From an uncultured virus (IMG/VR IMGVR_UViG_3300028887_000006) (lineage: Duplodnaviria; Heunggongvirae; Uroviricota; Caudoviricetes): DNA of 20,000 bases. Under the pieces are notes generated by a model, which made no database searches, was not told the DNA's origin, and saw nothing but the letters and a program-made list of their open reading frames with translations. Both the position numbers and the translations under genes were made by a program. Shown here piece after piece: positions 1 through 20,000 of the stretch (positions within the stretch are counted from its first letter, which is position 1; every line of letters begins with the position of its first letter). The DNA lies in IMG/VR virus record IMGVR_UViG_3300028887_000006. One strand, 5' to 3'.

Positions 1-66
1 CACGCCAACCTTAACTTGATTGCGGTTATTTGATGCTATGTGGCAGAAATTCTGGCTCTTGAACAT
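1..66 (-). CDS. 5' end of a virion protein gene (runs off the window); N-terminus resembles the decoration-domain paralogs
   Basis: ATG at 66 preceded by AAAAGGATATAAA; reads MFKSQNFCHIASNNRNQVKVGV, similar to MAFKLQNFGSEVANAKSILGGV (13863) and MSFNLDNFGSDASNVKSIFGGV (13543). Confidence 0.6.
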   Translation of the reverse strand, partial: MFKSQNFCHIASNNRNQVKVGV

Positions 67-89
67 TTTATATCCTTTTCTTCGTTGTT

Positions 90-119
90 ATAATAACACG
101 ACCTTTATTTTGTTTTCAA
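90..119 (-). promoter_or_regulatory. putative sigma70-type promoter
   Basis: TTGAAA-18 nt-TATTAT with TG extended -10, in the intergenic gap upstream of the gene starting at 66. Confidence 0.45.
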
Positions 120-1928: not shown

Positions 1929-1929
1929 A

Positions 1930-6072: not shown

Positions 6073-6102
6073 TTCTCATCCTTTGGGTTAATGGTAACAC
6101 AA

Positions 6103-7698
6103 TTATTCAACAATTTCAAATATAACGTCGCCATCAAAAGTAAAATCTTTCGGTCTAACAACACGACCATTTCGATTTACGCGATACTCTGGGTTTTTCG
6201 ATGCTTCTTCCCAATCAACCCAGTCATACTTGATTTGAGCAGCGTTTTTCTGGACTTCTCTTTGAGTTTGTTTTACGCCCGCCCAATCTCCTTGGCGAAT
6301 TTGTTGGTTTATTGTATCGGTTGCGGTAGACAATAAATTATTTAAGCGAATAAGTTTTACAGATTCGTCATAGCTCATTTTATCCAGCAAAGTAAGTCCT
6401 TGCCACGCTGTTTTCAACCCACCTTTGCCTGTACTGATATTGCGAACCGTTGTCATTTTAGATTCAAAATTGTCAATAATATCGCTAAAATTCTGCATAA
6501 TTGGCGCAAAAGCAGTATTTGTTTCCCAGTTTACTACGGTTTCACGCATTCTCTGTACATTTTTAGGGTTCAACCCGTATGTTTGGGCGTATTCTGCAAT
6601 CGAATCAAGTGTTGCTGTTCCTTGTTCCAAAATCTTTTGTTGTTCTGCATCGTTTGTTGGTGCCGGATTCTTTTCTGCGCTGTTAATCATACGCAACAAA
6701 TCAAGCATAGCAACAGGGCTTTCTGTCTTACTTGGGTCGATTTCGTTGAATTTAACGTTGACCTTTTCCATCTGGTTTATCATTTCTTTCGGCAATAAGC
6801 CAGATTCTCTCAATGATTCTACTGTTCCGGGCAAATCCTGCAGTTGCAAAGACGTATATTCTTTTACGCTTTGGTTAAATCTTGCTTTTTTAATATCTGC
6901 ACCTGCACGTTTTAATTCTTTTTGTGCGTATGCTTTTGCTTTTTCATATACTGTTCTGCTCATACCATTGTCTGCCATATAACGTTCTGGTGCAAGCATA
7001 AACTTTGTATAATAATCTGTTGAATTCTTTAAATCATCGTCATCATTAAGCAACATGCCATCAAAAAACTGTTTAAACCCTTCCAACATAGCATTTTCTG
7101 GATTTTTCATTTTCTTACGTTGAGTTTCTGTAAAATAGAAACTACCATCATCGTCTGTTAAATCTGCAAGTTTTGCTAAATCAGAACGCTGTTTAACGTA
7201 TGTTTCGACATCCATTGGGCGTTTTTCTGCTGGTTCTACAGCATTATACGTCAACACATTAAAATAACTTGTAGCAAGGTCGTCTGATAACCCTTCTGCA
7301 TATGCGGTGGCGTTTATTTTAGTTTGCTTTCTTTGGCGTTTTTTCTGTTCTGTAATAGTCTTATTTAATATAGATGCAGAATCATAGTATGTGTCTTTCA
7401 TAAACTGATTACGGATAGCCGGTGGCGTATCACTAGGCAACATTTCTGTACGAATCTTTTCCAGTGCTTGTTGCAACTGCGCAGGATTGTTGCCAAATTC
7501 TTGAACAGCTTCATCACATTGCTTTTTCCATTCGTTTTTAACAGCAAAATCCCAGTTGGTAATAGAGTCCTTGTATGCCTTGGCAGATGCTTTTTCAAAC
7601 TTAGATGTATCAACACCCGGTTCTTTTATGTTTAAGACATTCACATCGCCCGGAATTCCAGGTGTTTGTGTTTGTTTTATTTCTGCTACGTCTGCCAT
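6103..7698 (-). CDS. putative internal virion protein (T7 gp15-like position)
   Basis: 531-aa helical, charged ORF with RBS AAAAGGATAAAT; lies between the nozzle and the large ejection protein. Confidence 0.55.
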   Translation of the reverse strand: MADVAEIKQTQTPGIPGDVNVLNIKEPGVDTSKFEKASAKAYKDSITNWDFAVKNEWKKQCDEAVQEFGNNPAQLQQALEKIRTEMLPSDTPPAIRNQFMKDTYYDSASILNKTITEQKKRQRKQTKINATAYAEGLSDDLATSYFNVLTYNAVEPAEKRPMDVETYVKQRSDLAKLADLTDDDGSFYFTETQRKKMKNPENAMLEGFKQFFDGMLLNDDDDLKNSTDYYTKFMLAPERYMADNGMSRTVYEKAKAYAQKELKRAGADIKKARFNQSVKEYTSLQLQDLPGTVESLRESGLLPKEMINQMEKVNVKFNEIDPSKTESPVAMLDLLRMINSAEKNPAPTNDAEQQKILEQGTATLDSIAEYAQTYGLNPKNVQRMRETVVNWETNTAFAPIMQNFSDIIDNFESKMTTVRNISTGKGGLKTAWQGLTLLDKMSYDESVKLIRLNNLLSTATDTINQQIRQGDWAGVKQTQREVQKNAAQIKYDWVDWEEASKNPEYRVNRNGRVVRPKDFTFDGDVIFEIVE

Positions 7699-7709
7699 AT
7701 TTTATCCTT

Positions 7710-8354
7710 TTAACTTAAAATAAAATCTGCTGCTAATTTCCCATAAGAACTCTTGTACCCTTGTGCCTTGGTTGCACCTTCAAATCCTGCCCATAAATCG
7801 CCAAACGAACCGGCATCTCCACCTTTAAGAATACTGTCAAGACCTGTTTCTCCGCCTATGCTAAGCAAAACTGCGTCTTCTGCCGCTTTAATGCCTGATT
7901 CTACCAACTGGCCCGTCAACTGATATTTAGCTAGTTTCTGACCTATCTTTGCTTGTTCCTGATAAGATTTATATGCGGCTTTGTCCATATTTACATTACT
8001 TGTGGCTATTGCTATATCCTGTGTAATATTATACGCAGATTCTTTATGTTTTTCAAGTATATTACTCATAGAAACACGAATACCATGAGAAGCCGTTTGC
8101 ACAATATCATTAGCAACCGCAGTATTAAACTTATCTTGCAACTTGTTTTTGATAGTCAACAACTTATTATCCAAAGCATCCATTTTATTTTGATATGCTT
8201 GAATAGTGTTTTCTGTTTGCAAGTTGAGATTTTTATTACGCATACCGAAGAAAGCTAGATTGTCGAAGAATTGTAACAAATCTCCAGCAGAACCAAATAT
8301 TTGGCTTTCAAAATCGCTTATGCGTGCCTGTGATAATGCGTTTGTATCTTCCAT
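7710..8354 (-). CDS. putative internal virion protein (T7 gp14-like position)
   Basis: 214 aa with a coiled-coil middle and Gly/Ala-rich C-terminus, directly after the nozzle gene. Confidence 0.55.
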   Translation of the reverse strand: MEDTNALSQARISDFESQIFGSAGDLLQFFDNLAFFGMRNKNLNLQTENTIQAYQNKMDALDNKLLTIKNKLQDKFNTAVANDIVQTASHGIRVSMSNILEKHKESAYNITQDIAIATSNVNMDKAAYKSYQEQAKIGQKLAKYQLTGQLVESGIKAAEDAVLLSIGGETGLDSILKGGDAGSFGDLWAGFEGATKAQGYKSSYGKLAADFILS

Positions 8355-8355
8355 C

Positions 8356-10617
8356 TTAGCTATCCAATGTTCCGTACTCTATGTTCATCAGTAATGATTC
8401 TAGATGGAACATTGCCCCATTTTTGTTGGTTATTGTGTATTTAATCTCGTCTTTCATCCCTGTTACGCCATAAAAGCATATATGGTCTGTGCGTGGATTC
8501 ATATACCCAGTCTTTCCATTTATAGTTATAGCACCTGCTGGGGTGTCATGTACAGACATTTGTGCCTTTCCAATGCGTTTCATAACAGATTTGGTCTTTC
8601 CGCCCACGTCAATCGGGTGTGAACGAACTATTGCATCAATAGAAAGCCCAACAGTAACATTTGTCAAACTAGAAATATCTGATTGTATTTCCCCGTATTC
8701 GTCTGTTGTGCTTGAGAACTTAAATTCGCCATTTGCATATATATTTATTGGCGCATTGGCTATTGTCTTAAATTCGGGTGTAGTTTCTGGGTTTTTTATT
8801 CCATCTATAACGTAATAATTCTTAGAACCAAACGAGAACACTTCGCCAGTCATATCCATTTGCCCATCAAAGTCTAATACTGCAGGCAATACAACATTAT
8901 TATTATTCCCAGAATAGTTATTTGGGGATGCCTGGCTTAATGTAACCATGAACAAAACACCGTCTTTCAAGTTAACGCTACTATGAATCATTGGTGTATT
9001 GTCGTTATGTACAACAACATAAGTACTATCAGGATTATATTGTTTATATTCGGATTGAACCGTTGTTTTTATTTTCCATCTATTCCAAATCATAGCCTGA
9101 TTTTCAGGAACGAAGTTGCAAACACTTACTCTTGGATAGTTTGCATCGTCTTTATTTATCAAGAATAAATACTTTCCTGTGCTGTTTATTTTATCTTCAT
9201 AACCAGCAAGGCAATATGGATACCATACCAAATCATGCGGTGCTGCAGTATTGATATTCGAAGATTGGAAGATATTGCTTTGGAATTCATACTGCATAGC
9301 TTTTATTTGATTCCCTGTAGCATCACAATATAAACACAAAGATTCAAAAACAATAGGTTTGCAATCTCTAAAAGAGCCGTTACCCGACTGTTTTACAACA
9401 GAACCACTTTCATAGGCATATTCATAGGAATCTGTCATAATCTTTAGTCCGTTATAATCAACTAAATGCAATATTTTTTCTTTATATTGCGTAAGAATAT
9501 CAAGAGTAATTGCTTCGTTTTCTTGATTATAGTCGTTCTTAAAGTCGTTATATTTGGCTATTTGTGAGCCAATAGTAAGTGCGTATGATTCCCCACTTGC
9601 TTCAGCAGAACCTTCTGCCCAATCGCCAGCCCACAATCTTTGTTCTATAAACAATAATTGCGTTGGGTGCGGAAATGTTTCTTGAAGATGATAGTTTGGT
9701 GTTAATGAAGTGAATCCATACTCTATTGTTACTTCAGAATCAGCAGCCTGTTCGTCTGCAACTGGTGTTAATAAGCTACCCCATGCAATAATTTCATTGT
9801 TTTTAGGGCTATAGCCTTCCACTCTCATATATGCGCCATTTTTTGGGAACTGTATAATTGTTCCTGTTGGTATTTTTTCAATTATCAGCGACATATTTTG
9901 CAAAGTATTAGAAAGATTTGTTGTAATAGAACTAAATACTGTTGAAGATATTACTGCGCCACCAAAGCCCGATGTATCTGTTGCAATATACGGTTGAAAA
10001 CCACTACTGTCATGGTTAAAGTTAAGGCTTGGAATATCTGTTGTGGTTATCTTTTTAGTTTTTGTTCCGTCTGGTGCATACCAACCACCAACAAAATAAA
10101 ATACTTCTTTTGTAAGAGAATAGGTTGTATCTGTGTAAGAAGCAATTTTTATCTTAAATATCTGTGGATCACATGCTATCAACAAGTAGTTATTCTGTTG
10201 CGCATAAGAAAGCGGATGATATTCTTTTACTGTGTCTTTTCTAAACTGTGTTGATAATCTTATAGCATCGTCAGTAAAATCAAATTTATATACGATTTTT
10301 CCGTCTTTGACACGCATACTTTCGGCAGGTGTTAGATTTCCATGAATACAAAGCAAAATATAATCGTCTTCGCTGATATAAAATGGAATTACCTGCATGT
10401 GTGGGTCATATCTGAAATAACAATCCATTACGCTAGGGTCTGTAATAGATTCCAAAATCTTAATTGCGGGTCTACGAGATACATTGCCGTAAATATCAGG
10501 CATGCAGTTTTCCATGAGTTCAACGGAAGCCATGGTTATACCAGTGTCGGTTCTTTCTTCCAGTGCTTCTGCTGTTTCCCCCCTAGACCACTTAACTCGT
10601 TTCTGTTGGCTTTGCAT
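8356..10617 (-). CDS. tail tubular protein B / nozzle (T7 gp12-like)
   Basis: 753 aa, beta-rich; N-terminal WSRGE..L..RTD...ENCMPDIYGNVSRRP matches the podovirus nozzle N-terminal pattern; start overlaps the adaptor stop. Confidence 0.8.
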   Translation of the reverse strand: MQSQQKRVKWSRGETAEALEERTDTGITMASVELMENCMPDIYGNVSRRPAIKILESITDPSVMDCYFRYDPHMQVIPFYISEDDYILLCIHGNLTPAESMRVKDGKIVYKFDFTDDAIRLSTQFRKDTVKEYHPLSYAQQNNYLLIACDPQIFKIKIASYTDTTYSLTKEVFYFVGGWYAPDGTKTKKITTTDIPSLNFNHDSSGFQPYIATDTSGFGGAVISSTVFSSITTNLSNTLQNMSLIIEKIPTGTIIQFPKNGAYMRVEGYSPKNNEIIAWGSLLTPVADEQAADSEVTIEYGFTSLTPNYHLQETFPHPTQLLFIEQRLWAGDWAEGSAEASGESYALTIGSQIAKYNDFKNDYNQENEAITLDILTQYKEKILHLVDYNGLKIMTDSYEYAYESGSVVKQSGNGSFRDCKPIVFESLCLYCDATGNQIKAMQYEFQSNIFQSSNINTAAPHDLVWYPYCLAGYEDKINSTGKYLFLINKDDANYPRVSVCNFVPENQAMIWNRWKIKTTVQSEYKQYNPDSTYVVVHNDNTPMIHSSVNLKDGVLFMVTLSQASPNNYSGNNNNVVLPAVLDFDGQMDMTGEVFSFGSKNYYVIDGIKNPETTPEFKTIANAPINIYANGEFKFSSTTDEYGEIQSDISSLTNVTVGLSIDAIVRSHPIDVGGKTKSVMKRIGKAQMSVHDTPAGAITINGKTGYMNPRTDHICFYGVTGMKDEIKYTITNKNGAMFHLESLLMNIEYGTLDS

Positions 10618-11405
10618 TACATTCCCCCACCCATTTTACCACGAATCCACAACAACGGATTACCGTCAAGTGAATCGTGTTTGTTGCGTTTAGAGTCGAT
10701 GTTCTTTGCTTTACGGAAGAAGAAGGGTTCTTCCCCTGTCAGCAACTGTTGTCTTTGCATATCTCCATTCAGATATCCGTTTAATCTCTGTGCCAAAAAT
10801 ACCTTAAACCAGTCCACGAATTCCACTGGGAATACTGCTTCGTCAACATCTGCCACATATTTTATACGCAATCTCTTATTGTTAGCATATATAACAGTAC
10901 CGATTGTTGTATAATCAGCAAGTATGTTTATTTGTTCAGCAGGGAAAGCGGCAATATAACCAAGCAAATCTGTTGGCAATAATGTTGCTCTTGTGTAATT
11001 CCCTACTGTTTTGGCTTCGTTTATGCCCGTAAGAGAGATTTCTTGAGCCGTATCTGTGTTATCTATGTATTCCAAGTATATCGTCTGTGTGTCGATATAA
11101 ATCTTGTTTTCATCGTTTACGTATTCTGTTATCTGTTCGGTCTTTGTGTCGTCTGTGTATATTGTAAAAGCAGATGAAGGCTTTCTGTCCGCAGGGAACG
11201 CAACCACGTATTCAAATGTCGGAACTACAGTGTATTTAAACGCCCAAGACCACTGATACATTGTCAATGCAACTTTCTTTGCCAACGCATACTGGGTATT
11301 TATGATTTCAATATCTGTGTTACTAGTATCTGTCCAGTCAGTGATGGTTTCATGGTTTAATTCCATGAGAGCAAGATTTTTGATTTCATTGGCTGTAAAT
11401 GCCAT
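10617..11405 (-). CDS. tail tubular protein A / adaptor (T7 gp11-like)
   Basis: N-terminal EIKNLALMEL...I, YQWSWAFK, LPTD and C-terminal FP..F......LA.RL patterns typical of gp11-like adaptors. Confidence 0.8.
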   Translation of the reverse strand: MAFTANEIKNLALMELNHETITDWTDTSNTDIEIINTQYALAKKVALTMYQWSWAFKYTVVPTFEYVVAFPADRKPSSAFTIYTDDTKTEQITEYVNDENKIYIDTQTIYLEYIDNTDTAQEISLTGINEAKTVGNYTRATLLPTDLLGYIAAFPAEQINILADYTTIGTVIYANNKRLRIKYVADVDEAVFPVEFVDWFKVFLAQRLNGYLNGDMQRQQLLTGEEPFFFRKAKNIDSKRNKHDSLDGNPLLWIRGKMGGGM

Positions 11406-11415
11406 GGCTTACTCC

Positions 11416-11655
11416 TTATTCAAACTCTTCTGGTTGTGGTCTTGGGTCTTTTATTTCTGTATAATCTTCAATCTTTACACTCACATCATGAATATATACA
11501 GAATCAAATAATTCGCCGTCTTTTGTAAAGACCATACCTTCATCTGGCGTATAAAATGTATTTTCTTGCACAACTTCCATTCCTTGTGGTATTTTATCAC
11601 AATATACAACGGATATACCATTTAATTTGCCTAAGTACGCTTTATGTTCTTTCAT
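11416..11655 (-). CDS. small hypothetical protein, possibly fibre/adhesin-associated
   Basis: 79 aa, RBS AAGGAATATAACG, tightly packed after the LRR gene. Confidence 0.6.
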   Translation of the reverse strand: MKEHKAYLGKLNGISVVYCDKIPQGMEVVQENTFYTPDEGMVFTKDGELFDSVYIHDVSVKIEDYTEIKDPRPQPEEFE

Positions 11656-11666
11656 CGTTATATTCC

Positions 11667-12521
11667 TTATTCTGTTGCAGGTAAGTCAAAAGCCAAGTGT
11701 ATATAACTAGCATCACCACCAAATGTCGGATAACCAGTTAAGGTCGAAGCATCGAATGTATGATTCGGGTCTGATGGGTCAAAGTTCGATGGAAAATGAA
11801 TAGTACATCCGCCTGTTGCTTGTGAACCTGTGGAGGTATCACACAAATATCGGAGTTGTGTTTGTGAAGAAGCAAATGTAGATGCTTTAACTGCTCTAAA
11901 ATAAATATTTTGCAAAGTTTTACAACCATAAAAAATACTTAAATAAACATTTTGACCAAAACAAGATGTCCCAGATATTGTAGTTAATTTTGGAAAGTCT
12001 GCCGTAGTCAAACCACTACAACCCGAAAAAGCAGCAGCAAGGCAATAGTTACCTGTTAACTCTTCTAAATCATCCATATCTATTGTTGTTAAACCATAAC
12101 AATTATAAAAACAATAATTCAATGCGTACATGCCGCTTATAGTTTTAACATTATTCAAACCAGTAGAAGTTAAGTTTGTTTGACCATAAAAACAATATTG
12201 AAGTGCATATATACCAGATATCGTTGTTAAAGAATTAGCGTTCTTTAGTGCTGTTCCTGTTAAAGTTCCTCCAGTTATGTAAGAATAATAAGCGTATGCT
12301 AAAACATATGGAGATAAATCTGTTATACCAGTTAAATCGATAGTTTGATTACCATTTGTCAAAATATTATTTTGTTTACTTTTCACAACATAATAATCTG
12401 GTGCTGTTGTTGGAACTTGGACATCAGCAGAAGCATACCCTGCAACATCATGTGTGCCGTTGGTTGTAATCTGTTTTGTTCCGCTTGGTTTCTTTCCGCC
12501 TAATTGTGAATTTATAATCAT
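11667..12521 (-). CDS. BspA-like (TpLRR) leucine-rich-repeat protein, putative adhesin/receptor-binding protein
   Basis: Repeats of about 26 aa, L.TISG.YAL.YCFY.C..LT, four to five copies; N-terminal ITTNGTHDVAGYASADVQV linker. Confidence 0.75.
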   Translation of the reverse strand: MIINSQLGGKKPSGTKQITTNGTHDVAGYASADVQVPTTAPDYYVVKSKQNNILTNGNQTIDLTGITDLSPYVLAYAYYSYITGGTLTGTALKNANSLTTISGIYALQYCFYGQTNLTSTGLNNVKTISGMYALNYCFYNCYGLTTIDMDDLEELTGNYCLAAAFSGCSGLTTADFPKLTTISGTSCFGQNVYLSIFYGCKTLQNIYFRAVKASTFASSQTQLRYLCDTSTGSQATGGCTIHFPSNFDPSDPNHTFDASTLTGYPTFGGDASYIHLAFDLPATE

Positions 12522-12532
12522 AACTCAACCCC

Positions 12533-13543
12533 TTAGTTCAAGATTACAACATTAACAGATATGTTATTTGTTGGGTCTGTCGTGCAAGTAAATGTCAAAC
12601 TATTTGCGCCCTGTGCTATGCAAAGTATTTCTGCATCTGCATAATCTGATGCACTTGCCGATGCTGGCGATACGATAACAGTATTATCTGCCGTTACACC
12701 ACTCACAGTTTTTGTTTGACTATGAGATACCCAATCTGTTGAAACTAACGATATTGTACTTGTTTGCTGTGTTACTGCACCTATTTCTTGCGCTGTTGGT
12801 ACAGGTTGAGCATTTGTTCTTACCCAAGAATATGTAACAGTATCTTCCTCAACAGAACAAGTAAATGCAATCACATCTGCATCAACAGGTGTTCCTGTGA
12901 ATGTAAAGCCATGATCTACATAATCTTCGTTGTATTCAAAGAAAGTTGTTATAGTGTTATCTTCTGCATCTTTACCAACCAATGTCCAACCACCGCCAGC
13001 GGCATCGTATGTCATTGTTCCACTTACGATTGGCGTTGGGTCTGCACCTGCTTCTGTCAAGAAACTTGCAAAGTCATCGCCTGAGCAAGCAACCGTTGTG
13101 CTTGATAATGTTGCCGCTTCGAACGACACTGTGCCAGTGTATGTTGCACTTTTTTGGCATTCATAGATATATCCATGCGTATAACTAGCATCTGTTGCGC
13201 CTGTGAACAGATAAAAATATCCAAGATTATCAGCACTAGCTGTTGGCAAAACGTCTGCATTAACAACTTTAGACAAATCAACACTTCCACCTGCTTCAAC
13301 TTTTGTTACGGTTACAACACGGTTTGTTATATCAGTAACGATATATTCTTCGTCAGGATTTGTTTTTGTTTGTGGGATAACTGTAATTCTATCGCCTAAT
13401 TGTAAACCCAAAGATGCAGGGAAGAAACCAGGGTTGGTTACCGTGCTATTGTCCTTGTTGAAATATCTGTAATAGCAAACACCGCCAAAGATAGATTTTA
13501 CATTACTAGCATCTGAGCCAAAGTTATCAAGGTTGAAAGACAT
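12533..13543 (-). CDS. putative capsid fibre / extended decoration protein
   Basis: First 83 aa match the upstream 83-aa protein at 46/83 positions (hand alignment); followed by Thr-rich beta modules (LPTASADNLG..., C-terminal Ig-like segment); RBS AAAGGAG. Confidence 0.65.
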   Translation of the reverse strand: MSFNLDNFGSDASNVKSIFGGVCYYRYFNKDNSTVTNPGFFPASLGLQLGDRITVIPQTKTNPDEEYIVTDITNRVVTVTKVEAGGSVDLSKVVNADVLPTASADNLGYFYLFTGATDASYTHGYIYECQKSATYTGTVSFEAATLSSTTVACSGDDFASFLTEAGADPTPIVSGTMTYDAAGGGWTLVGKDAEDNTITTFFEYNEDYVDHGFTFTGTPVDADVIAFTCSVEEDTVTYSWVRTNAQPVPTAQEIGAVTQQTSTISLVSTDWVSHSQTKTVSGVTADNTVIVSPASASASDYADAEILCIAQGANSLTFTCTTDPTNNISVNVVILN

Positions 13544-13560
13544 GTTTTCTCCTTTATTGT

Positions 13561-13598
13561 TTTATCGAATCCCAACTAATTAGCCAGGATTCGACAAA
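13561..13598 (-). terminator. long RNA hairpin (stabiliser, processing site or weak terminator) after the capsid/decoration genes
   Basis: 17-bp stem with 4 G-U pairs that work only on the minus-strand RNA; loop AAUU; no U-tract follows. Confidence 0.55.
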
Positions 13599-13611
13599 GC
13601 AACAACGTACT

Positions 13612-13863
13612 TTAAGCAAACGCTGTTACGGTTACTGTACTGCCAGAAACAGCAGATACATAGTACCACGCATCAGCATTTGATAAAGTTGCTGGAATAA
13701 CACATATTCTGTCGCCTACTTTCAATCCCAAGTTGCCTGGGAAGTAGCCGGCTGTTGTTATTGTGTCGCCATCAGCGTTGAAATAACGATAGTAACATAC
13801 GCCACCCAAAATGGATTTTGCATTTGCTACTTCAGAACCAAAGTTTTGTAATTTAAAAGCCAT
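13612..13863 (-). CDS. putative capsid decoration protein
   Basis: 83 aa directly downstream of the MCP; D.ITTAGYF...L.VGD.I pattern seen in small post-capsid proteins of podoviruses; RBS AAAGGGGG. Confidence 0.65.
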   Translation of the reverse strand: MAFKLQNFGSEVANAKSILGGVCYYRYFNADGDTITTAGYFPGNLGLKVGDRICVIPATLSNADAWYYVSAVSGSTVTVTAFA

Positions 13864-13881
13864 TGTATCCCCCTTTCGTTA

Positions 13882-14724
13882 TTAAGCCGCTGCCAATTCG
13901 ATACCAACGATACCTTTATCATCGATAACTACAGAACCTGCTGAACACCAGAAGGAGTGATAGTAACCATGATATTGTGGTGTATCTGCTACGTGGACAT
14001 CACGGATTTTACCGATAAATGTACCGATAGCTTTCTTGTCGAACAAGAACGCCATTACACCACCGTTAGGGCCGGCTGGCAATTTGTAGTCTGGGTCTGC
14101 ACTTGCAACGAATTCCCAGTTGACACCCATCCATTTTTTAACTTCAGAGCCGGAAACCAATGGGCGATAGTCGTTGGTTAAGAAGTTTGTCCAAGTTGTA
14201 TCGTCTTCCATGTCCTGTTGCATTTTGGTTGGACCAACGATAGTCAATTCATCCATCGATACAGCGTTATCACGCAACAAACCTTTCGCTTCAGAGATAA
14301 TATCTGTGGACATTGGGTCTGTGTGATGGTCTAACAACATGTTAGTATCGTCAAAACCTGCGTTCAAAGCATCGATAACGATTTGACCGATACCACGGTT
14401 CAAAGCATAGACAGCATTGTCTGTGTTGACACGTGCTTCGTCAATATTCAATTTTGGTGCATTGCGATATTCGATAACGAAATCAACATACAAATCTTGT
14501 ACAGTAGCTGTAACAGGTGCGTATGTCATTTGTTGCGGAACACCGATTGCGCCTGGAACTAAACGTTGTGCGACAAATTTGCCAGACACAGCGAAACGAG
14601 CATCTTCCCCTTTTTCGCCTGAGCGGATTGTTGTACCAGCAATCAAGTTAGAAGATTTTTGTTGATAAGCTTCTTTGACTAAAGGGTCAAAGTAGGTAAT
14701 GTACATATCAAGGATTGAAGCCAT
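13882..14724 (-). CDS. major capsid protein
   Basis: 280 aa from MASILD (RBS AAAGGAGAATAAA); FD..VKEAYQQK.S.L, ARF..SGK, KWMGVNW and G.VVIDDKGIV motifs of podovirus HK97-fold capsids. Confidence 0.85.
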   Translation of the reverse strand: MASILDMYITYFDPLVKEAYQQKSSNLIAGTTIRSGEKGEDARFAVSGKFVAQRLVPGAIGVPQQMTYAPVTATVQDLYVDFVIEYRNAPKLNIDEARVNTDNAVYALNRGIGQIVIDALNAGFDDTNMLLDHHTDPMSTDIISEAKGLLRDNAVSMDELTIVGPTKMQQDMEDDTTWTNFLTNDYRPLVSGSEVKKWMGVNWEFVASADPDYKLPAGPNGGVMAFLFDKKAIGTFIGKIRDVHVADTPQYHGYYHSFWCSAGSVVIDDKGIVGIELAAA

Positions 14725-14771
14725 TTTATTCTCCTTTGTTTGGCTTGTTAAAGTTTTACAAAGGATATAAT

Positions 14772-14847
14772 GTCGGGCCAATTTAATTGTTTTGTGGGTC
14801 GTTTCCTTTCTTTAAAGAACCGTCGGGCCACTGATTTAAATCGGGTC
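14772..14847 (-). repeat. tandem GACCC-N12/15-TGGCCCGAC motif in the MCP 5' leader
   Basis: GTCGGGCCA at 14772-14780 and 14822-14830, each accompanied by GGGTC; GC-rich motifs in an AT-rich leader. Confidence 0.6.
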
Positions 14848-14865
14848 TTTATACCTTTCAAGTAG

Positions 14866-14895
14866 ATTATACGCACGATTTTTTATTAAAAGCAA
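14866..14895 (-). promoter_or_regulatory. putative promoter of the structural operon
   Basis: TTGCTT-18 nt-TATAAT about 140 nt upstream of the MCP start. Confidence 0.55.
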
Positions 14896-15019
14896 GTATT
14901 TTTTTGTTTTAATCCCTAAATAGTACGTATTATTCTTTCTTTTATATAATATATAATGTAAATGGTTGAAAGATACTTAAAAAAGAATCAAGTAAAAACA
15001 GATAGTTATACGAAAAAAC

Positions 15020-15063
15020 TTGCCTAAAAAAAGGCAAAAAAAAGGCAAAAAAAAGGCAAAAAA
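15020..15063. repeat. phased A-tract tandem repeat (A7-8 GGC)x3
   Basis: A7-GGC-A8-GGC-A8-GGC-A6, 11-bp period; overlaps the inverted repeat TTGCCT-A6-AGGCAA. Confidence 0.8.
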
Positions 15064-15081
15064 TAAATTTTAGGATGGATA

Positions 15082-15110
15082 TTGACAAGGAGAGAAGACG
15101 ATGATAATAT
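15082..15110 (+). promoter_or_regulatory. sigma70-type early promoter
   Basis: TTGACA-17 nt-TAATAT. Confidence 0.7.
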
Positions 15111-15165
15111 ATGTTTTGAAAGGATGATTGCGGCGCCAAAAGAGTTTCGGAAAAACCGAAAAGAT

Positions 15166-15204
15166 TACCCAGGAATACCGCAATTGTTTCTGGGTATTTT
15201 TTTT
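15166..15204 (+). terminator. intrinsic terminator/attenuator in the early leader
   Basis: Stem TACCCAGGAATA/TGTTTCTGGGTA, loop CCGCAAT, followed by T8, immediately before the RBS of the gene at 15219. Confidence 0.75.
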
Positions 15205-15218
15205 AAAGGAGAAAAAAG

Positions 15219-15809
15219 ATGGTAAACAAGACCACTAATTATCATTTTCTAACAGTTGGTATAGAACAACCAACAGAAACATCAAGTTACGCAGAAAAAT
15301 TAAAATACTTGGTAAAAATAGTAAATCCTGAATTTCCCAGTTATGATTTTATTTTGAGATTAGCATCATTTGCATCCTGTTCTGAACTATCAGCAACGCA
15401 GAAAGAAAAAGCGGATGAATTTATAAACTATTTCAAACGCTTAGGCTATTTTAATGAAATATTATATACAGAAGATAACGAATCCCACAAAAAAGTTTAT
15501 GATTTTTGCAAAGAAAACAATTTAAAACGTGTAAATATTCAGCAATTTATTGCAAATTTATATATTATTAAATTTAATGATTATGACTGGATATGGGGTT
15601 TTGATCCTGAGGGGCAAGAAGGAATTATTGACTGGAAAAAAGAGATAATTAAATACAACGAAAAACAAATAAAAGAAGGTATTAAATATTTAAAAACGTT
15701 TGGTTTAAAAGAATGGAACAAACCAATATTAAAAGGCGAAAAAGAAAGGTTTAAAGACCGATATATAGGCGATATTATTACTAAAAATGAATATTGTGAA
15801 GAACTGTAA
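15219..15809 (+). CDS. hypothetical early protein
   Basis: 196 aa, RBS AAAGGAG. Confidence 0.7.
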   Translation: MVNKTTNYHFLTVGIEQPTETSSYAEKLKYLVKIVNPEFPSYDFILRLASFASCSELSATQKEKADEFINYFKRLGYFNEILYTEDNESHKKVYDFCKENNLKRVNIQQFIANLYIIKFNDYDWIWGFDPEGQEGIIDWKKEIIKYNEKQIKEGIKYLKTFGLKEWNKPILKGEKERFKDRYIGDIITKNEYCEEL

Positions 15810-15830
15810 CAAATCAAGAAAGGATTTGTT

Positions 15831-16400
15831 ATGGAAGAAAAAACAGTATTTAAAAACAAATTAACAATAGATATTCGTGTTCTAACAGAATGTCAAAAGA
15901 AAATAGATAAAACGCGCTTTTATAAACTGATAAAGATGCTCAATTTGTCTATTTCTGCAGACAGTTTACACCCAGAACTAATGCAAGAACACGATAGTTA
16001 CTTTGAACCACGCACAGATGCGGAAAGGGATTTTTGGATATCGTGTAGAAATTTAGCAAAAAAAGACATGGAAGGGCTTATCAAAAAGGCTCATGGTGGA
16101 ATAAATAGCGCAGAAGTTCGTAGACAAAAGAAGCTCACAGAAGAAGAAAAACAAAAAGCATTAGATAAAGCGGTAAAATCTGTCGGTGCTGTCGGTAAAA
16201 ACGAAGTGATAATAACACCAGATTTCGAGTTGCCTAATAGTGAATACTTTGATTCTTACCGTAAAACATATACTGCTGACGAGTTAAAAAGAGTGGTTGA
16301 CTGGCTAAAAAAGACTAAATTGAACGAAAAAGTAGATTATATGTGGATAGGAAAACAGATACAAAACTTTAAAAAAAGAAATACTGGAAAAATATTTTAA
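15831..16400 (+). CDS. putative replication initiator-like protein (DUF1376/DUF6291-like organisation)
   Basis: 189 aa; helical N-domain ending KAHGGINSAEVRRQKK, a pattern common in phage replication proteins; small C-terminal helical domain. Confidence 0.4.
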   Translation: MEEKTVFKNKLTIDIRVLTECQKKIDKTRFYKLIKMLNLSISADSLHPELMQEHDSYFEPRTDAERDFWISCRNLAKKDMEGLIKKAHGGINSAEVRRQKKLTEEEKQKALDKAVKSVGAVGKNEVIITPDFELPNSEYFDSYRKTYTADELKRVVDWLKKTKLNEKVDYMWIGKQIQNFKKRNTGKIF

Positions 16401-16404
16401 AAAA

Positions 16405-16435
16405 CACTTGACTTTCTAAATCAAGTGATTATAAT
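16405..16435 (+). promoter_or_regulatory. promoter overlapped by a palindromic operator-like site
   Basis: TTGACT-16 nt-TATAAT; perfect inverted repeat CACTTGA-N9-TCAAGTG at 16405-16427. Confidence 0.65.
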
Positions 16436-16467
16436 AAGTGGTGTAGAAACAAAAAAAGGATGTTAAG

Positions 16468-16656
16468 ATGTTCGAGATCGTAAGAGAATACGAAAAACTA
16501 GGCTATGAGTTTTTAGGTTCTGTGCTTTTTAATCAGAAAGCATTGGAAGCTTATAGAAAATCAAACAAGCACGAAGCCATTAAGGTTGGTCGCTGTTTGG
16601 AAATCGTGGTATTGCACGATATTAAAAAAATCGTTGAATATGATTTTGGCGATTAA
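16468..16656 (+). CDS. hypothetical protein
   Basis: 62 aa, RBS AAAGGA. Confidence 0.7.
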   Translation: MFEIVREYEKLGYEFLGSVLFNQKALEAYRKSNKHEAIKVGRCLEIVVLHDIKKIVEYDFGD

Positions 16657-16682
16657 GTGTAAAAACAAAAAAGGATGTTAAG

Positions 16683-16952
16683 ATGAAAAGTACAAATCTT
16701 GAATATATGCAAAATGAATTAAAATACGCTTTCAAATGGATGGCTCGTGCCACAGATTTAGCAAAACAAGGAGAATTCTCTGGTGCAACTTACGCTATGA
16801 CAGTAGCTCAGCAACATTGGAATAACTGCCAGCATTGTCAAGACAAATATATAAACGATGACGATGCAAAACAAATACATTGGGATTTCTTCGCAACCAA
16901 AGCTATGGCTATGGCAAAAGAAGAATTAGCTAAAGAAAAAAAAGGAAAATAA
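16683..16952 (+). CDS. hypothetical protein
   Basis: 89 aa; near-identical leader/RBS to the preceding gene. Confidence 0.7.
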   Translation: MKSTNLEYMQNELKYAFKWMARATDLAKQGEFSGATYAMTVAQQHWNNCQHCQDKYINDDDAKQIHWDFFATKAMAMAKEELAKEKKGK

Positions 16953-16953
16953 T

Positions 16954-17475
16954 ATGTCAACATTATATGAAATGGATGAACAAATGAAGGCAATCGAAGC
17001 TATTTTGATTGCCAACGAAGACCCAAACACAGAAGAAATCTTGGAAAATGCAAAGATTGCGCTGGAACAGGACATCGAAAACAAGATGGAATCAATTTTG
17101 AAATACAAGGCCGATTGCGATGCTAAGGTTATAGCTATCAAGTCCGAAATAGAAAGATTGACTAAGAAAATCAAATCTCTGAATAATAAAAGCGACTTTT
17201 TGAAATCTTTGTGTTATTCGCATATGATTACCACAGGTAAGCAGAAAGCAGATTATGGCACATGGACATTATCAATAGCTAAAAAGCCTGCTAGCGTTAA
17301 ATTAACAGACGATGCAAGTGCATTGTTGCCGGATTGTTATTGCACAATTACTCGTACACCGAATAAAACAGCTATTAAAGAAGCTATGACCGATGGTGAA
17401 TTGTTTGTACAGGTTGGTGATAAGAAAATTGTCTTAGCAACACTGGAACAAGGCGATACAATAAGGATTAAGTAA
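16954..17475 (+). CDS. Siphovirus Gp157-family protein
   Basis: MSTLYEM start, long coiled coil (AIKSEIERL..K...NK...LK), TLSIAKKPASV and PNKTAIKEA motifs; next to the annealase. Confidence 0.8.
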   Translation: MSTLYEMDEQMKAIEAILIANEDPNTEEILENAKIALEQDIENKMESILKYKADCDAKVIAIKSEIERLTKKIKSLNNKSDFLKSLCYSHMITTGKQKADYGTWTLSIAKKPASVKLTDDASALLPDCYCTITRTPNKTAIKEAMTDGELFVQVGDKKIVLATLEQGDTIRIK

Positions 17476-17606
17476 TGAATAAGAGAACACACAGAGAAGA
17501 AGTTGTGCGCATCTTACAAGACATCCTTGCTATGCCAAATGCTCGTAGTGCTGCACAACACCAGTTATATATTTACAAAGCATCCTTGTTAACCAAAAGG
17601 AAATAA
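17475..17606 (+). CDS. small hypothetical protein (43 aa)
   Basis: TAATG overlap with the Gp157 stop; fills the gap to 17608 exactly (MNKRTHREEVVRILQDILAMPNARS...). Confidence 0.6.
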   Translation: MNKRTHREEVVRILQDILAMPNARSAAQHQLYIYKASLLTKRK

Positions 17607-17607
17607 T

Positions 17608-18219
17608 ATGGAAAAAACAAAAATAAATACAATTAACATTAAAGGGAAAGAATATGCAACCGTAGATTCTCGTGTTCAATTCTTCCGTGAAAAATATACA
17701 AATTGGTCTATTGAAACAGATTTTGTTGTACTTGATTTAGATAAAGGTGTTTGTGTATGTCGTGCTGTTGTAAAAGATGAAAACGGTAAAATTATGTCTG
17801 ATGGTTATGCTCATGAATGGCAAAGCAAACCAGGTTCTATGGTTAACAAAACATCTTACATAGAAAACGCACAAACTTCTGCTGTTGGTCGTGCGCTGGG
17901 ATTTATTGGTATTGGTATCAATGGTATTGGGATAGCAAGTGCAGAAGAAGTGTCAATAGCTATCGAACACCAACAAAATAATGACTTTCAAGTAACTGAC
18001 CAAACAATTAACGATGTTGTTGGAGATGAAATACCAGAAAAACGTTCACTGGTTAATGGTGTATCAAAAGAATGTCAAGAAGCTATTAACGATGCAGATA
18101 CTATGGTGGCATTACGTGCTGTCTATGATAAATATGCAACACTTGAACCGCTGCAAGATTTGAAAGATGCATGTGCAGCAAAAAAAGAATTGTTGCAAGT
18201 AATGCTGACTATGGGCTAA
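17608..18219 (+). CDS. Rad52/Sak-like single-strand annealing protein
   Basis: IKGKEYATVDSRV...G.AHE...VNKTSYIENAQTSAVGRALGFIGIG signature. Confidence 0.75.
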   Translation: MEKTKINTINIKGKEYATVDSRVQFFREKYTNWSIETDFVVLDLDKGVCVCRAVVKDENGKIMSDGYAHEWQSKPGSMVNKTSYIENAQTSAVGRALGFIGIGINGIGIASAEEVSIAIEHQQNNDFQVTDQTINDVVGDEIPEKRSLVNGVSKECQEAINDADTMVALRAVYDKYATLEPLQDLKDACAAKKELLQVMLTMG

Positions 18220-18321
18220 GATTCTAACGGTGGCTGTGGATTTATTTCATTGATTTTCCTTTCTCTCGACATCCCCACAGCCATACACAAGTGAGTGCGG
18301 CACTTCCGTTAGAATCCGCAC
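18220..18321 (+). ncRNA. candidate structured RNA (three-way junction with anti-RBS loop and pseudoknot)
   Basis: Perfect pairings 18220-18230/18306-18316, 18231-18239/18275-18283 and 18289-18293/18301-18305; loop GTGCGG complementary to CCGCAC 18316-18321. Confidence 0.55.
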
Positions 18322-18342
18322 ACTAACACAAAAGGACACGCT

Positions 18343-18567
18343 ATGAACAAAGATTTATTATTATCACTTGTACAAAGAATTGAAAAGTTAAACTCTGATG
18401 CAGAAGCTATTGCTGCTGATATCAAAGAAATCTATCACGAAGCAAAGATGCAAGGGTTTGATGCAAAGGCTATCAAAAAATGTATTGCTTTGCGTAAAAA
18501 AGATAAAGATGAACTTGAAGAAGAAGACGAAGTTTTGAAACTTTATCGTTCTGCTTTAGGTTTATAA
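18343..18567 (+). CDS. gapR: GapR / DUF2312 nucleoid-associated DNA-binding protein
   Basis: L.S.VQRIEKL...IAADIKEIYHEAK..GFDAKAIKK.I.LRKKD..E..EE..VL.LY..ALG matches the DUF2312 consensus. Confidence 0.9.
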   Translation: MNKDLLLSLVQRIEKLNSDAEAIAADIKEIYHEAKMQGFDAKAIKKCIALRKKDKDELEEEDEVLKLYRSALGL

Positions 18568-18571
18568 TCAG

Positions 18572-18626
18572 TTTGGGGTGGTCTGCTTCATGATAAATCT
18601 CTTCTCTCTTTCTTCCCCACCCCAAA
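18572..18626 (+). ncRNA. candidate hairpin sRNA with anti-RBS/anti-AUG loop
   Basis: Perfect 10-bp stem TTTGGGGTGG/CCACCCCAAA around a 35-nt pyrimidine-rich loop. Confidence 0.5.
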
Positions 18627-18640
18627 AGAGAGATATATTT

Positions 18641-18726
18641 GGGTAGGTAGCGAAGCGGTCAAACGCATCAGACTGTAAATCTGACACCTTCGGGTTTCGA
18701 TGGTTCGAATCCATCCCTGCCCACCA
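18641..18726 (+). tRNA. tRNA-Tyr (GTA)
   Basis: Acceptor GGGTAGG/CCTGCCC, anticodon arm TCAGA-CTGTAAA-TCTGA, long variable arm, T arm GATGG-TTCGAAT-CCATC, encoded ACCA end. Confidence 0.95.
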
Positions 18727-18744
18727 AGAATAAAGGAGTTGAGC

Positions 18745-18807
18745 ATGATTTGGGTGTTAATAGGAATTTTAATTTTTACTTGGTTTGTAATAAAGGATGA
18801 ACAATGA
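18745..18807 (+). CDS. 20-aa hydrophobic micro-protein
   Basis: RBS AAAGGAG; MIWVLIGILIFTWFVIKDEQ; ATGA overlap with the next ORF. Confidence 0.5.
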   Translation: MIWVLIGILIFTWFVIKDEQ

Positions 18808-18968
18808 AGAAACACTTAATAGTTAGAATACTCTTGTGTATAGCAAGTTTTGCTTGCGGTATATATTGGGAACGCAGTGCAAGTTGGCACGACCAAGAAG
18901 AATGGATGCAGTATGCACAAGAAGCGTGCGACCTGCGGATTAAAACACTGAAAGCAACTTGTAAATAA
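18804..18968 (+). CDS. small membrane-anchored/secreted protein (54 aa)
   Basis: RBS AAAGGA; MKKHLIVRILLCIASFACGIYW... has a basic N-terminus and a hydrophobic helix. Confidence 0.6.
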   Translation: MKKHLIVRILLCIASFACGIYWERSASWHDQEEWMQYAQEACDLRIKTLKATCK

Positions 18969-18978
18969 GGAGAGCAAA

Positions 18979-19566
18979 ATGAAAAAGAAAGAAATTACAT
19001 TACAAGACATTTTTGATAAAATGGAAGAATTAAACTCTAACTTTACAAACCGCATAAATCATTTGTCGGATTGCGTAAGGTCGTTCTGTGAAATTGATAA
19101 TACCGAAGTCAAATCGGTTGAAAGTCACGACGGTGTTATAATAACAGACAAAGATTATATCACAATCACTGCTGACGATGTATATGTTGGCGGTGCGCCA
19201 GCAAGAGAATATCACGGTCAAGAGATTTATAGTCGATATTTTTGCCCTGCTTATTTCAAAGAAGCCAGAGATACGATTCGAGAAGAATATGGTTATGAGT
19301 TGCTTGAAATACATTGTTTACAATCTTCAACAGATGGCGAATATGCAAAATCTGGGAACCCAGTGCCAGACGAAAAAGGTAAATATTGCTGGGTAAGAGT
19401 GAAATATAAAGATAAATATGGAGCGCCTGCGGCTTCGCTTTGGGTGTTCGGCCTCACGTACAGTTCGGCTTCCGATTGCGCGAGCGGCTGTGCGAACAAC
19501 TGCGGTGGCAGCGTCCGTTACAACTCCGATATGCGTTCGGGCTTGTTCGGGTCTGTGCGTAATTGA
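18979..19566 (+). CDS. hypothetical protein with a C-terminal putative DGR variable region
   Basis: 195 aa, RBS AAGGAG; C-terminus YCW...SLWVF...Y.SASDCASGCANNCG.SVRYNSDMRSGLFGSV encoded by a GC-rich, NNC-rich block. Confidence 0.75.
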   Translation: MKKKEITLQDIFDKMEELNSNFTNRINHLSDCVRSFCEIDNTEVKSVESHDGVIITDKDYITITADDVYVGGAPAREYHGQEIYSRYFCPAYFKEARDTIREEYGYELLEIHCLQSSTDGEYAKSGNPVPDEKGKYCWVRVKYKDKYGAPAASLWVFGLTYSSASDCASGCANNCGGSVRYNSDMRSGLFGSVRN

Positions 19567-19613
19567 TGTGCCGGAATGCGAAGGTGGGGTTTGGGGCGGA
19601 ACATCTGCCCCAA
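19423..19613 (+). other. putative DGR variable repeat plus 3' hairpin
   Basis: 47 consecutive codons with no third-position A; about 62% GC over 19421-19560 (hand count); hairpin TTGGGGCGGA-ACA-TCTGCCCCAA at 19591-19613. Confidence 0.65.
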
Positions 19614-19639
19614 CAACGAAAAACAAAAGGAGAACGACA

Positions 19640-20000
19640 ATGAGTAAAGATATTTGGCATAAAGCAGATGAGGCACCAAAAGCAGAAAGATATTTTATTG
19701 AACATTATAAAGTAGTAGTTGGTGACAAAGTTTATTGGAAATATGGTCTTTTTAAGGGAGTTAGTAATTACGATTATCCGTTTGACCAAGACACAGCAAG
19801 ATGGTGTTATCTTGATGACCTGCTTGCACTTGAAACCGAATTGGAACGCACACGCAAGGCATTGGATGTCACAACAGGGTTTATTAAAGGAATATCACAA
19901 ACAGTAATAAATGATTGTGATAATCAGTATGTTGTGTTGGGCAATTTTAAGAAATTCGCAGAAGACACTTTAAACCAAATCAAAACAGCACTAGAACAAA
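19640..20000 (+). CDS. hypothetical protein (partial, runs off the window)
   Basis: RBS AAAAGGAG, ATG at 19640, open to the end: MSKDIWHKADEAPKAERYF...WCYLDDLLALETELERTRKALD. Confidence 0.7.
   Translation, partial: MSKDIWHKADEAPKAERYFIEHYKVVVGDKVYWKYGLFKGVSNYDYPFDQDTARWCYLDDLLALETELERTRKALDVTTGFIKGISQTVINDCDNQYVVLGNFKKFAEDTLNQIKTALEQ

Follow-up and report, generated by a model that had tools for sequence, protein, structure and literature searches.

A variable repeat on an RT-less phage as a probable target of a chromosomal diversity-generating retroelement in gut Alphaproteobacteria

Introduction

A diversity-generating retroelement (DGR) is usually viewed as a self-contained cassette whose benefit goes to the genome that encodes it. 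Among the described systems closest to the one reported here is the DGR of Bordetella phage BPP-1, in which the target gene mtd, with its variable repeat (VR), is adjoined by the phage's own avd, template repeat (TR) and reverse transcriptase (RT) gene, brt. Mtd belongs to the tail fibre and adopts a C-type lectin fold. A hairpin requirement has been described for DGRs of the BPP-1 type (PMC3240598). The other relevant group consists of chromosomal DGRs, such as those of the Treponema denticola type, where one TR and RT serve several targets lying far from the cassette. Parts of PMC5758913 and PMC4891356 describe remote targets, orphan targets in genomes that carry no DGR, and an avd-TR-brt unit acting in trans from a plasmid; the remote targets in these descriptions lie in the same cellular genome as the DGR. 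For phage-borne DGRs, a comment in Wu et al. 2018 is that remote targets make no sense. Surveys that require a VR beside the RT cannot see distant VRs, as is acknowledged in a passage of Roux et al. 2021 (PMC8144416), and by virtue of this requirement they miss the VRs of RT-less phages by design.

This study focused on a gene near the end of a 20,000-nt stretch of DNA (hereafter the window) from an uncultured virus. As with mtd of BPP-1, a phage gene here ends in a VR built on AAC-type codons, and the VR of a homolog on a second phage shows adenine-specific differences from a TR; the 3' end of the window VR is GC-rich and free of A, and a hairpin of unexceptional folding energy lies nearby. 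Unlike the BPP-1 arrangement, TRs and RTs of matching type are found in chromosomes of the likely hosts and not beside the target, and unlike Mtd, the gene product (P0001) falls into no Pfam family and its VR is predicted to form the end of a strand followed by two helices. The host DGRs resemble those of the T. denticola type in having VR-like sites far from the cassette, but here a target would lie on a phage replicon. The system would be a variant of a known DGR arrangement, new in that a cellular DGR would act on a gene of a phage lacking an RT. In the main texts covered by a literature search no such combination was described, nor was anything reported on DGRs in bacteria of the order Rs-D84, to which the hosts belong.

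Results

The target gene and its variable repeat

The features of the locus that bear on this interpretation are the following.

18979..19566, plus strand: target gene encoding P0001, 195 aa (open reading frame and translation; no signal peptide)
19426..19560, plus strand: GC-rich VR unit, corresponding to the part of host VRs that is homologous to TRs (from DNA similarity to both)
19450..19524, plus strand: TR-adenine span, with 24 of the 25 TR-A sites (map of TR-A sites; the 25th is at 19529)
19532..19560, plus strand: A-free, GC-rich 3' end of the VR, 29 nt, IMH-like (read from the sequence; matches the invariant 3' part of host TR/VR pairs)
19591..19613, plus strand: hairpin TTGGGGCGGA-ACA-TCTGCCCCAA (10-bp stem that includes one G-T pair, 3-nt loop), starting 25 nt past the stop codon

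The 3' part of the gene stands apart in composition. Its GC content is 62.1% at 19421-19560 compared with 35.3% in the remainder of the ORF, and the maximum over 140 nt (62.9%) is the strongest outlier of the whole 35.7 kb phage record (mean 37.9%, SD 5.2%, next 52%). Adenine is absent from codon position 3 in the last 47 sense codons but occupies it in 37% of the first 148, a difference expected by chance with a probability of about 3e-10, and 19 of the final 41 codons are NNC. The first-pass annotation, which was made from the letters of the window alone, had given the GC content of this stretch as about 62%, the last 47 sense codons as free of A at the third position, the NNC count as 19 of 41, and a GC hairpin with a 3-nt loop at 25 nt past the stop; all of these agree with the present measurements.

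Similarity to host VRs and TRs starts at 19426 (CCTGCGG...) and stops near 19556-19570, just past the stop codon, and blastn found no similarity to host VR/TR loci 5' of 19426. With a TR-A site defined as a position carrying A in at least half of 22 host TRs (n=25), those within the TR-adenine span are 19450-51, 53-54, 59-60, 74-75, 83-84, 86-87, 95-96, 98-99, 19507-08, 10-11, 19-20 and 22-23, and every site is at codon position 1 or 2. Host TR/VR pairs are identical to each other over the stretch equivalent to 19532-19560. The hairpin may serve in target recognition by a DGR, or it may be a terminator. Within 80 nt after the stop, stems of 7 bp or more follow 18 of 30 host VRs and three of five phage VRs, against 35 of 840 shuffled sequences; the folding energy of this one is unexceptional (74-nt stretch, z = -0.97, with 28 of 200 shuffles folding equally well).

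Protein family and hypervariable positions

A search at E<=1e-3 gave 132 homologs of P0001, which falls into no Pfam (0 matches at E<=1), PHROG or NCBIfam family. The family shares the C-terminus WVF xx x x (S/G)SA x x CA xx CA xx C(G/A) xx V(R/Q) xx ... R..(L/V)FG, in which the W, F, three Cys and R are invariant scaffold residues and pairs of hypervariable positions lie between them. Of 120 homologs, 114 can be aligned in a single frame of fixed length. Eleven columns of this alignment have an entropy of at least 2.5 bits, and K, E, Q, M or W occupy just six of the 1254 cells of these columns compared with 25.6% upstream. The residues that do occur (Y, N, D, S, G, R, F, A, H, L, I, V, T, P and C) make up the repertoire expected from randomising both adenines of AAC codons.

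The variation is concentrated in the VR even among close relatives. Within ten clusters at 90% identity, 96 of 3237 upstream residues differ (3.0%) as against 128 of 636 in the VR (20.1%), and two pairs show this in the extreme: between P0002 and P0122 there are no differences over 155 upstream residues but 12 over 32 VR residues, and between P0071 and P0128 none over 151 but 14 over 32. Nine of the 20 pairs with a comparable VR have identical VRs, so that change in the VR looks all-or-none. As judged from these sequences, the variation of the VR is recent and block-wise, and the 3' end of the gene 18979-19566 is a genuine DGR-type variable repeat. The initial identification of a DGR-type VR, made from codon pattern and GC content, is thus upheld by the family as a whole: in its scaffold interrupted by hypervariable columns, its AAC-type repertoire and the confinement of differences to the VR in otherwise near-identical proteins.

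Two further features recur in the family, an LQS(S/L)T motif (114 of 120 homologs) and an N-terminal extension of at least 40 residues, present in all 112 homologs in which a DYITI-type motif was located. This extended architecture is that of the proteins placed on phage genomes. The homologs so placed, on phage records or contigs, number only five (G001, G002, G003, G007:C4 and G263:C9), and a phage origin would apply to the remainder by inference. Binning labels of the contigs bearing homologs conflict with one another, naming Alphaproteobacteria, Clostridia and Methanobrevibacter.

Phage genomes carrying the target gene

The window maps to a 35,728-bp virus record (G001) as two blocks that span the ends of the record, and these ends share a repeat of 253 nt with one mismatch. 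Because of this terminal overlap, and because the window runs across the record ends, the phage genome appears to be complete, most likely with a length of about 35.5 kb, although a completeness estimate of 49% for the same record is at odds with the terminal evidence. Its genes are those of a podovirus-like phage and include a T7-type head-tail connector, capsid protein, tail proteins, holin and endolysin, along with a 1380-aa protein with an ART-PolyVal domain, a Gam-like/Gp157 protein, a methylase, HNH nucleases and a resolvase. An integrase was not found by PHROGs and Pfam scans. Two relatives are known, G002, which is complete with direct terminal repeats, and G003.

No RT was detected among the 45-46 ORFs of the phage by PHROGs and Pfam scans, and a six-frame search of the whole record gave no match to RVT_1, which was likewise missing from the relatives, that is, from all three phage records. 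Searches with blastn-short at sensitive settings found no TR or other second copy of the GC-rich stretch in the 35.7 kb record, the VR itself being the sole match; neither relative holds a second VR copy, and a repeat search of the window gave nothing relevant to the VR. The earlier statement that the window has neither RT nor TR therefore extends to the entire phage record. Of the two origins that the first-pass annotation had offered for the VR, a remote target of a DGR on the phage itself is not supported, given a phage genome that is apparently complete and has neither RVT_1 nor TR.

Two neighbours of the target gene give context.

18343..18567, plus strand: gene for a GapR-like DNA-binding protein (PF10073, E 2e-25)
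18641..18726, plus strand: tRNA-Tyr (GTA) (ARAGORN; Rfam tRNA 62.9 bits)

GapR is typical of Alphaproteobacteria. Some part of window positions 1-19400 was matched in 152 of 328 Rs-D84 genomes, and among the order-wide matches listed most fall on 18353-18570, with about 68-84% nucleotide identity to a chromosomal gene. The GapR-like gene thus links the phage to these hosts independently of the VR. Apart from the tRNA, Rfam found nothing over 18300-20000.

Host DGRs and their templates

A 25-nt degenerate motif for the predicted TR was written from the VR codons. It had no match in the viral contig collection and 11 in the species-genome collection, all of them in gut or rumen Alphaproteobacteria, with MAG titles of Alphaproteobacteria, Candidatus Enterousia, Rickettsiales and uncultured proteobacterium (rumen/gut). 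A link to uncultured gut Alphaproteobacteria, which the first-pass annotation had proposed, is in this way borne out by every one of the loci. One of the templates reads TGG GTC TTC AAC AAC ACG AAC AGT TCG GCC GCC AAT TGT GCG AAC AAC TGT GCG AAC AAC TGC GCG AAC AAC GTC CGT, and a conserved element lies 3' of the template matches. Four of the 11 loci were annotated, and all four have an RVT_1 RT about 1 kb downstream of the TR, with housekeeping genes as neighbours of the cassette (trigger factor, FtsH, Rho, RpoC, DUF1015) on contigs of 39-445 kb. RTs of DGRs are marked by the motif IGxxxSQ; three of the four RT sequences have IGNLTSQ and all have YCDD. An Avd-like four-helix-bundle protein (TIGR02436) is encoded at one locus. 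Ten of the 11 loci have a VR in cis, at 86-92% identity, and in nine TR-VR alignments nearly all mismatches inside the homology are at TR adenines.

The RT family was found in 89 of the 328 genomes of Rs-D84, and order-wide BLAST detected VR- or TR-like DNA in 70. A six-frame census of the loci retrieved gave 22 TRs, 38 host VRs and six phage-type VRs, one of which (L045) may be a host paralog. The host genomes have sizes of 0.5-1.3 Mb, and the order, with Ca. Enterousia, is described as a reduced-genome lineage in part of PMC12306168. A single host genome has 11 VR-like sites on seven contigs, which shows that a host DGR already serves remote targets.

Host target proteins are of more than one kind. 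Some carry signal peptides, are 227-677 aa long and have in common with P0001 only the last 60-90 residues (E 1e-9 to 1e-6), while others, of 138-206 aa, are homologous over the whole domain and have no evident signal peptide when their N-termini are read by eye. Genes for the small targets occur in tandem arrays of up to seven copies on large contigs. Given the whole-domain homologs, P0001 can be seen as a phage-borne member of a host multigene family to which a long N-terminal helix has been added. The central domain taken without the VR has matches in 65 of the 328 genomes, with more than 50% identity only for two phage contigs.

The proposed search for a TR thus succeeded as regards AAC-rich TRs next to RTs in host chromosomes, but did not yield the exact TR of the window VR, which was not found by order-wide BLAST among the 328 genomes, including the 70 with matches. 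The nearest TRs (L033, L034 and L039) share the scaffold of the window VR (T, SSASDCAS, CG, VR) and differ from it at 12-14 adenines and 15-22 other positions. The two best order-wide DNA matches, in G082 and G272, are host VRs at 81-84% identity, and neither RT nor TR was recovered in those MAGs. Phage and host VRs stay similar for some 10 nt past the TR boundary (AATTGATG), for which a cDNA copy alone is an insufficient explanation.

Related contigs in a bovine gut sample

One bovine gut run, possibly the source of the window, contains another 14 short contigs. They align with 19424-19558 alone, where their likeness is 80-95%, and raise the depth over this stretch from 24 to 55-75. The loose ends listed for these contigs differ from the phage, and one reads as a host-type ..CWCKMTH. 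In this comparison, which used assembled contigs, where minor variants drop out, and set aside the low-coverage runs X2, X6 and X9, the short contigs vary from the phage at 21 positions, 18 of which are among the 25 TR-A sites of the 131 positions compared (Fisher p 9e-14). The variants on TR-A sites and the host-type end indicate that cellular VRs are present in this sample and derive from a template with the same scaffold.

A template and a phage variable repeat on separate contigs of one MAG

The clearest relationship between a host TR and a phage VR is seen in MAG G007. Its contig C42 (3.8 kb) carries a TR, an RT and a host VR, and its contig C4 is the complete genome of a myovirus-type phage of 41,403 bp with a 99-bp DTR, coding for tail sheath, tube, baseplate, tape measure, portal, terminase, major head protein, a serine integrase and a GapR-like protein. 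The phage homolog of P0001 has 218 aa and is encoded outside the tail module. Over 114 nt, the VR on C4 mismatches the TR on C42 at 15 of 27 adenines and at none of 87 other positions (Fisher p 8e-12), and in its variable codons it differs from the sole host VR recovered in this MAG. The only match to the RT family in G007 is on C42, none being found on C4. These observations lend indirect support to the second origin suggested in the first-pass annotation, a host DGR acting in trans, since TR and RT are present in host chromosomes and the phage VR of G007 is an adenine-only derivative.

Only one other MAG, G263, has both a phage-type gene and a DGR. Its TR and phage VR have the same rare scaffold (..EAxRVGLFG), but the TR was rejected as cognate of the VR on account of 19 non-A mismatches, which leaves one exact pair (G007) in the two MAGs where a phage VR and a TR were co-binned. 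The phage of G007 has just four of 51 ORFs in common with the window phage, and the target gene therefore appears to travel between unrelated phages of Rs-D84 hosts. In both phage types it lies outside the recognisable head and tail genes, and for this reason a tail-fibre reading was dropped. The original description of the target as a non-structural early gene can be retained only as far as this position is concerned.

Predicted structure of the variable domain

With the family alignment, AF2 modelled full-length P0001 at a pLDDT of 90.1, and the C-terminal 151 residues alone at a pLDDT of 91.5 and pTM of 0.88. The model has a long N-terminal helix (residues 8-41), followed by a beta-rich domain with one helix, and in the VR a strand end leads into two helices (164-181 and 183-191). 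The variable residues are 158, 159, 161, 166, 170, 173, 174, 177, 178, 181 and 182, with a spacing of 3-4 residues along the first of these helices. Judging from this spacing rather than from coordinates, Cys167, Cys171 and Cys175 would be on the opposite side of the helix from the variable residues, and the variation would then be presented on a single face of the protein, made up of the strand end and one side of the alpha-helix.

A fold comparison that had been recommended at the outset gave a confident model, as just described, but Foldseek did not match it to any known fold: against the PDB there was nothing at E<=1e-3 for either the full-length or the C-terminal model (best E for the latter 0.13). 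For the C-terminal domain, the top results were Z 4.2 with VIA-align wide and E 0.05 with BFVD, with no DGR variable protein listed, and the ESM Atlas had no usable match. The full-length model matches only coiled coils, by way of its N-terminal helix, and a sequence-profile search of the PDB reached a best E of 0.55, to unrelated proteins. By sequence, an FGE-sulfatase/CLec domain was recognisable neither in P0001 (Pfam and NCBIfam) nor in three host target proteins (Pfam), in keeping with the earlier view that the protein lacks a C-lectin ending. The VR domain is thus not recognisably of the C-type lectin type, though it may be distantly related to a known fold.

Discussion

The explanation favoured here, with a probability of roughly 0.7 on comparative sequence evidence, is that a DGR of the host chromosome diversifies the phage gene in trans. 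The RT and TR would be supplied by the chromosome of a reduced-genome gut alphaproteobacterium of the order Rs-D84 (Ca. Enterousia and relatives), whose DGR, comprising a TR, an RT with IGNLTSQ and, at one or more loci, an Avd-like protein, would normally rewrite the many host genes that end in the same domain. With phage DNA in the cell, TR RNA would be reverse-transcribed by the host RT with errors opposite adenines, and the cDNA would replace the phage VR over the interval bounded by a short homology on the 5' side and the GC-rich, A-free end on the 3' side; the downstream hairpin may assist in this. The outcome would be a diversity of the phage protein that is both generated by, and matched to, the host's own mutator. 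The 5' limit of similarity coinciding with the limit of the TR, an A-free 3' end like that of host VRs, and the hairpin are all consistent with retrohoming on phage DNA. For the temperate phage of G007, the VR would simply be a remote target on a prophage. The window phage has no detected integrase, so retrohoming would have to reach its DNA during replication or in some carrier state.

Of the other explanations, the one that survives best, while still unlikely, is that the phage VR is renewed by homologous recombination or gene conversion with host VR paralogs, the host DGR being only the ultimate source of diversity. Partners for such exchange abound, as host paralogs are many and the arrays of up to seven small genes are homologous over the whole C-terminal 140 residues; the window phage also encodes a Gam-like/Gp157 protein and a resolvase, and the extra 10 nt or so of similarity past the TR boundary would be accounted for. 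Recombination fits less well with the 5' limit of similarity, which coincides with that of the TR and upstream of which blastn found nothing, or with near-identical genes that bear wholly different VRs between unchanged flanks. It also fits poorly with the phage VR of G007, which is unlike the sole host VR recovered there in its variable codons and yet equals the TR at all 87 non-A positions.

It is less probable still that the VR is a fossil of ancestral DGR ownership or use, in which diversification has ended. Orphan targets in bacteria have been interpreted as such remnants in part of PMC4891356, and a phage with no detected RT or TR, for whose VR the exact template was not found, could be read in the same way. 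A fossil would not be expected, however, to show 12-14 differences over 32 VR residues alongside none over 151-155 residues upstream, nor would it fully retain its NNC-only repertoire and foreign GC content, and the G007 pair is free of non-A decay. Least likely of all is a source outside the host chromosome, with the RT and TR on another mobile element (a helper phage, plasmid or integrative element) that co-infects the same cells. Although the TR and RT of G007 are on a 3.8 kb contig of unknown context and MAG bins can mix replicons, all four of the longer loci have the cassette flanked by housekeeping genes, and ten phage-like contigs gave no match to the RT family.

Diversification in trans by the host DGR, if true, would mean that targeted hypermutation can be shared or exploited across replicons, that the evolvability of a virus depends on its current host, and that matching the scaffolds of VRs and TRs gives a host assignment readable from sequence for uncultured phages. 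At somewhat better than even odds, this can be put more broadly: phages of Rs-D84, of at least two unrelated morphotypes, would carry a portable target gene that plugs into the chromosomal DGR of the host and so obtain targeted hypermutation of a binding protein without machinery of their own. The module would represent a previously undescribed DGR scaffold, a small beta domain and a helix that varies on one face and has a Cys-x3-Cys-x3-Cys spine; the hosts also have this module in tandem arrays. Such a module would add a non-lectin, partly helical variable-protein scaffold to the targets of DGRs. As a guess, the phage protein may be a ligand-binding accessory, with a specificity that follows that of the host family, and perhaps be oligomerised or anchored via its N-terminal helix.

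DGR richness has been reported for other small-genome lineages, and this is echoed by the reduced-genome hosts of Rs-D84, some of which carry many targets.

Replicon Completeness and Host Labels

The phage record (G001, 35,728 bp) is rated as 49% complete and 'linear'. Its two ends share a 253-nt repeat with one mismatch, and the window spans both of them, placing the junction repeat at 9459–9711. Because the window crosses the record ends, and these carry the repeat, the sequence argues that the phage genome is probably complete at about 35.5 kb despite its rating. The homologs P0064, P0079 and P0133 lie on contigs of about 15–36 kb, the source MAGs of which are labelled Alphaproteobacteria, Clostridia and Methanobrevibacter. 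These labels conflict, and the bins of homolog-bearing phage contigs are therefore unreliable evidence for host assignment.

P0001-Like Genes in Phages and Hosts

A short motif, CGG(A/T)ATGCG or GCGTAATGCG, occurs 5–25 nt past the stop codon of phage-type P0001-like genes, on differing phage backbones, and was not seen downstream of the host VRs inspected. On host chromosomes, the whole P0001 domain recurs in tandem arrays of up to seven small paralogs (138–206 aa), many of which carry a VR; a signal peptide was not evident when their N-termini were inspected by reading. A larger host target of 677 aa has an internal VR copy as well as one at its C-terminus, and a single TR matches both; this target may be one protein with two target domains in tandem, or the product of read-through across two genes.

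Post-stop motif and host loci:
Window 19571–19580: post-stop motif; also just past the stop in loci L004, L005, L006 and L009 and in the complete myovirus-type phage contig G007:C4
L106 (G049:C6), L109 (G257:C3) and L110 (G259:C1): paralog arrays
L024, 3174–5207: 677-aa host target

Other Phage Genes and Sites

Among the order-wide matches listed for window positions 1–19400, most are to a GapR-like gene, which shares about 68–84% nucleotide identity with a chromosomal gene of Rs-D84 genomes. G007:C4, a phage unrelated to that of the window, has a GapR-like gene as well.

Window 18343–18567, + strand: GapR-like DNA-binding protein, 74 aa (PF10073, E 2e-25)
Window 1930–6072, − strand: ART-PolyVal ADP-ribosyltransferase domain protein, 1380 aa (PF18760, E 4e-19)
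Window 11667–12521, − strand: BspA-type leucine-rich repeat protein, 284 aa (PF13306, E 5e-8)
Window 15014–15068: three head-to-tail copies of A8GGC with 11-nt spacing

ART-PolyVal domains of this kind occur in large polyvalent phage proteins. The BspA-type repeat protein, encoded amid the tail genes, is a candidate receptor-binding protein other than P0001. The A8GGC copies fall between divergent gene blocks (14942–15139 on the minus strand; 15219 onward on the plus strand), a gap that may contain a promoter or an origin.
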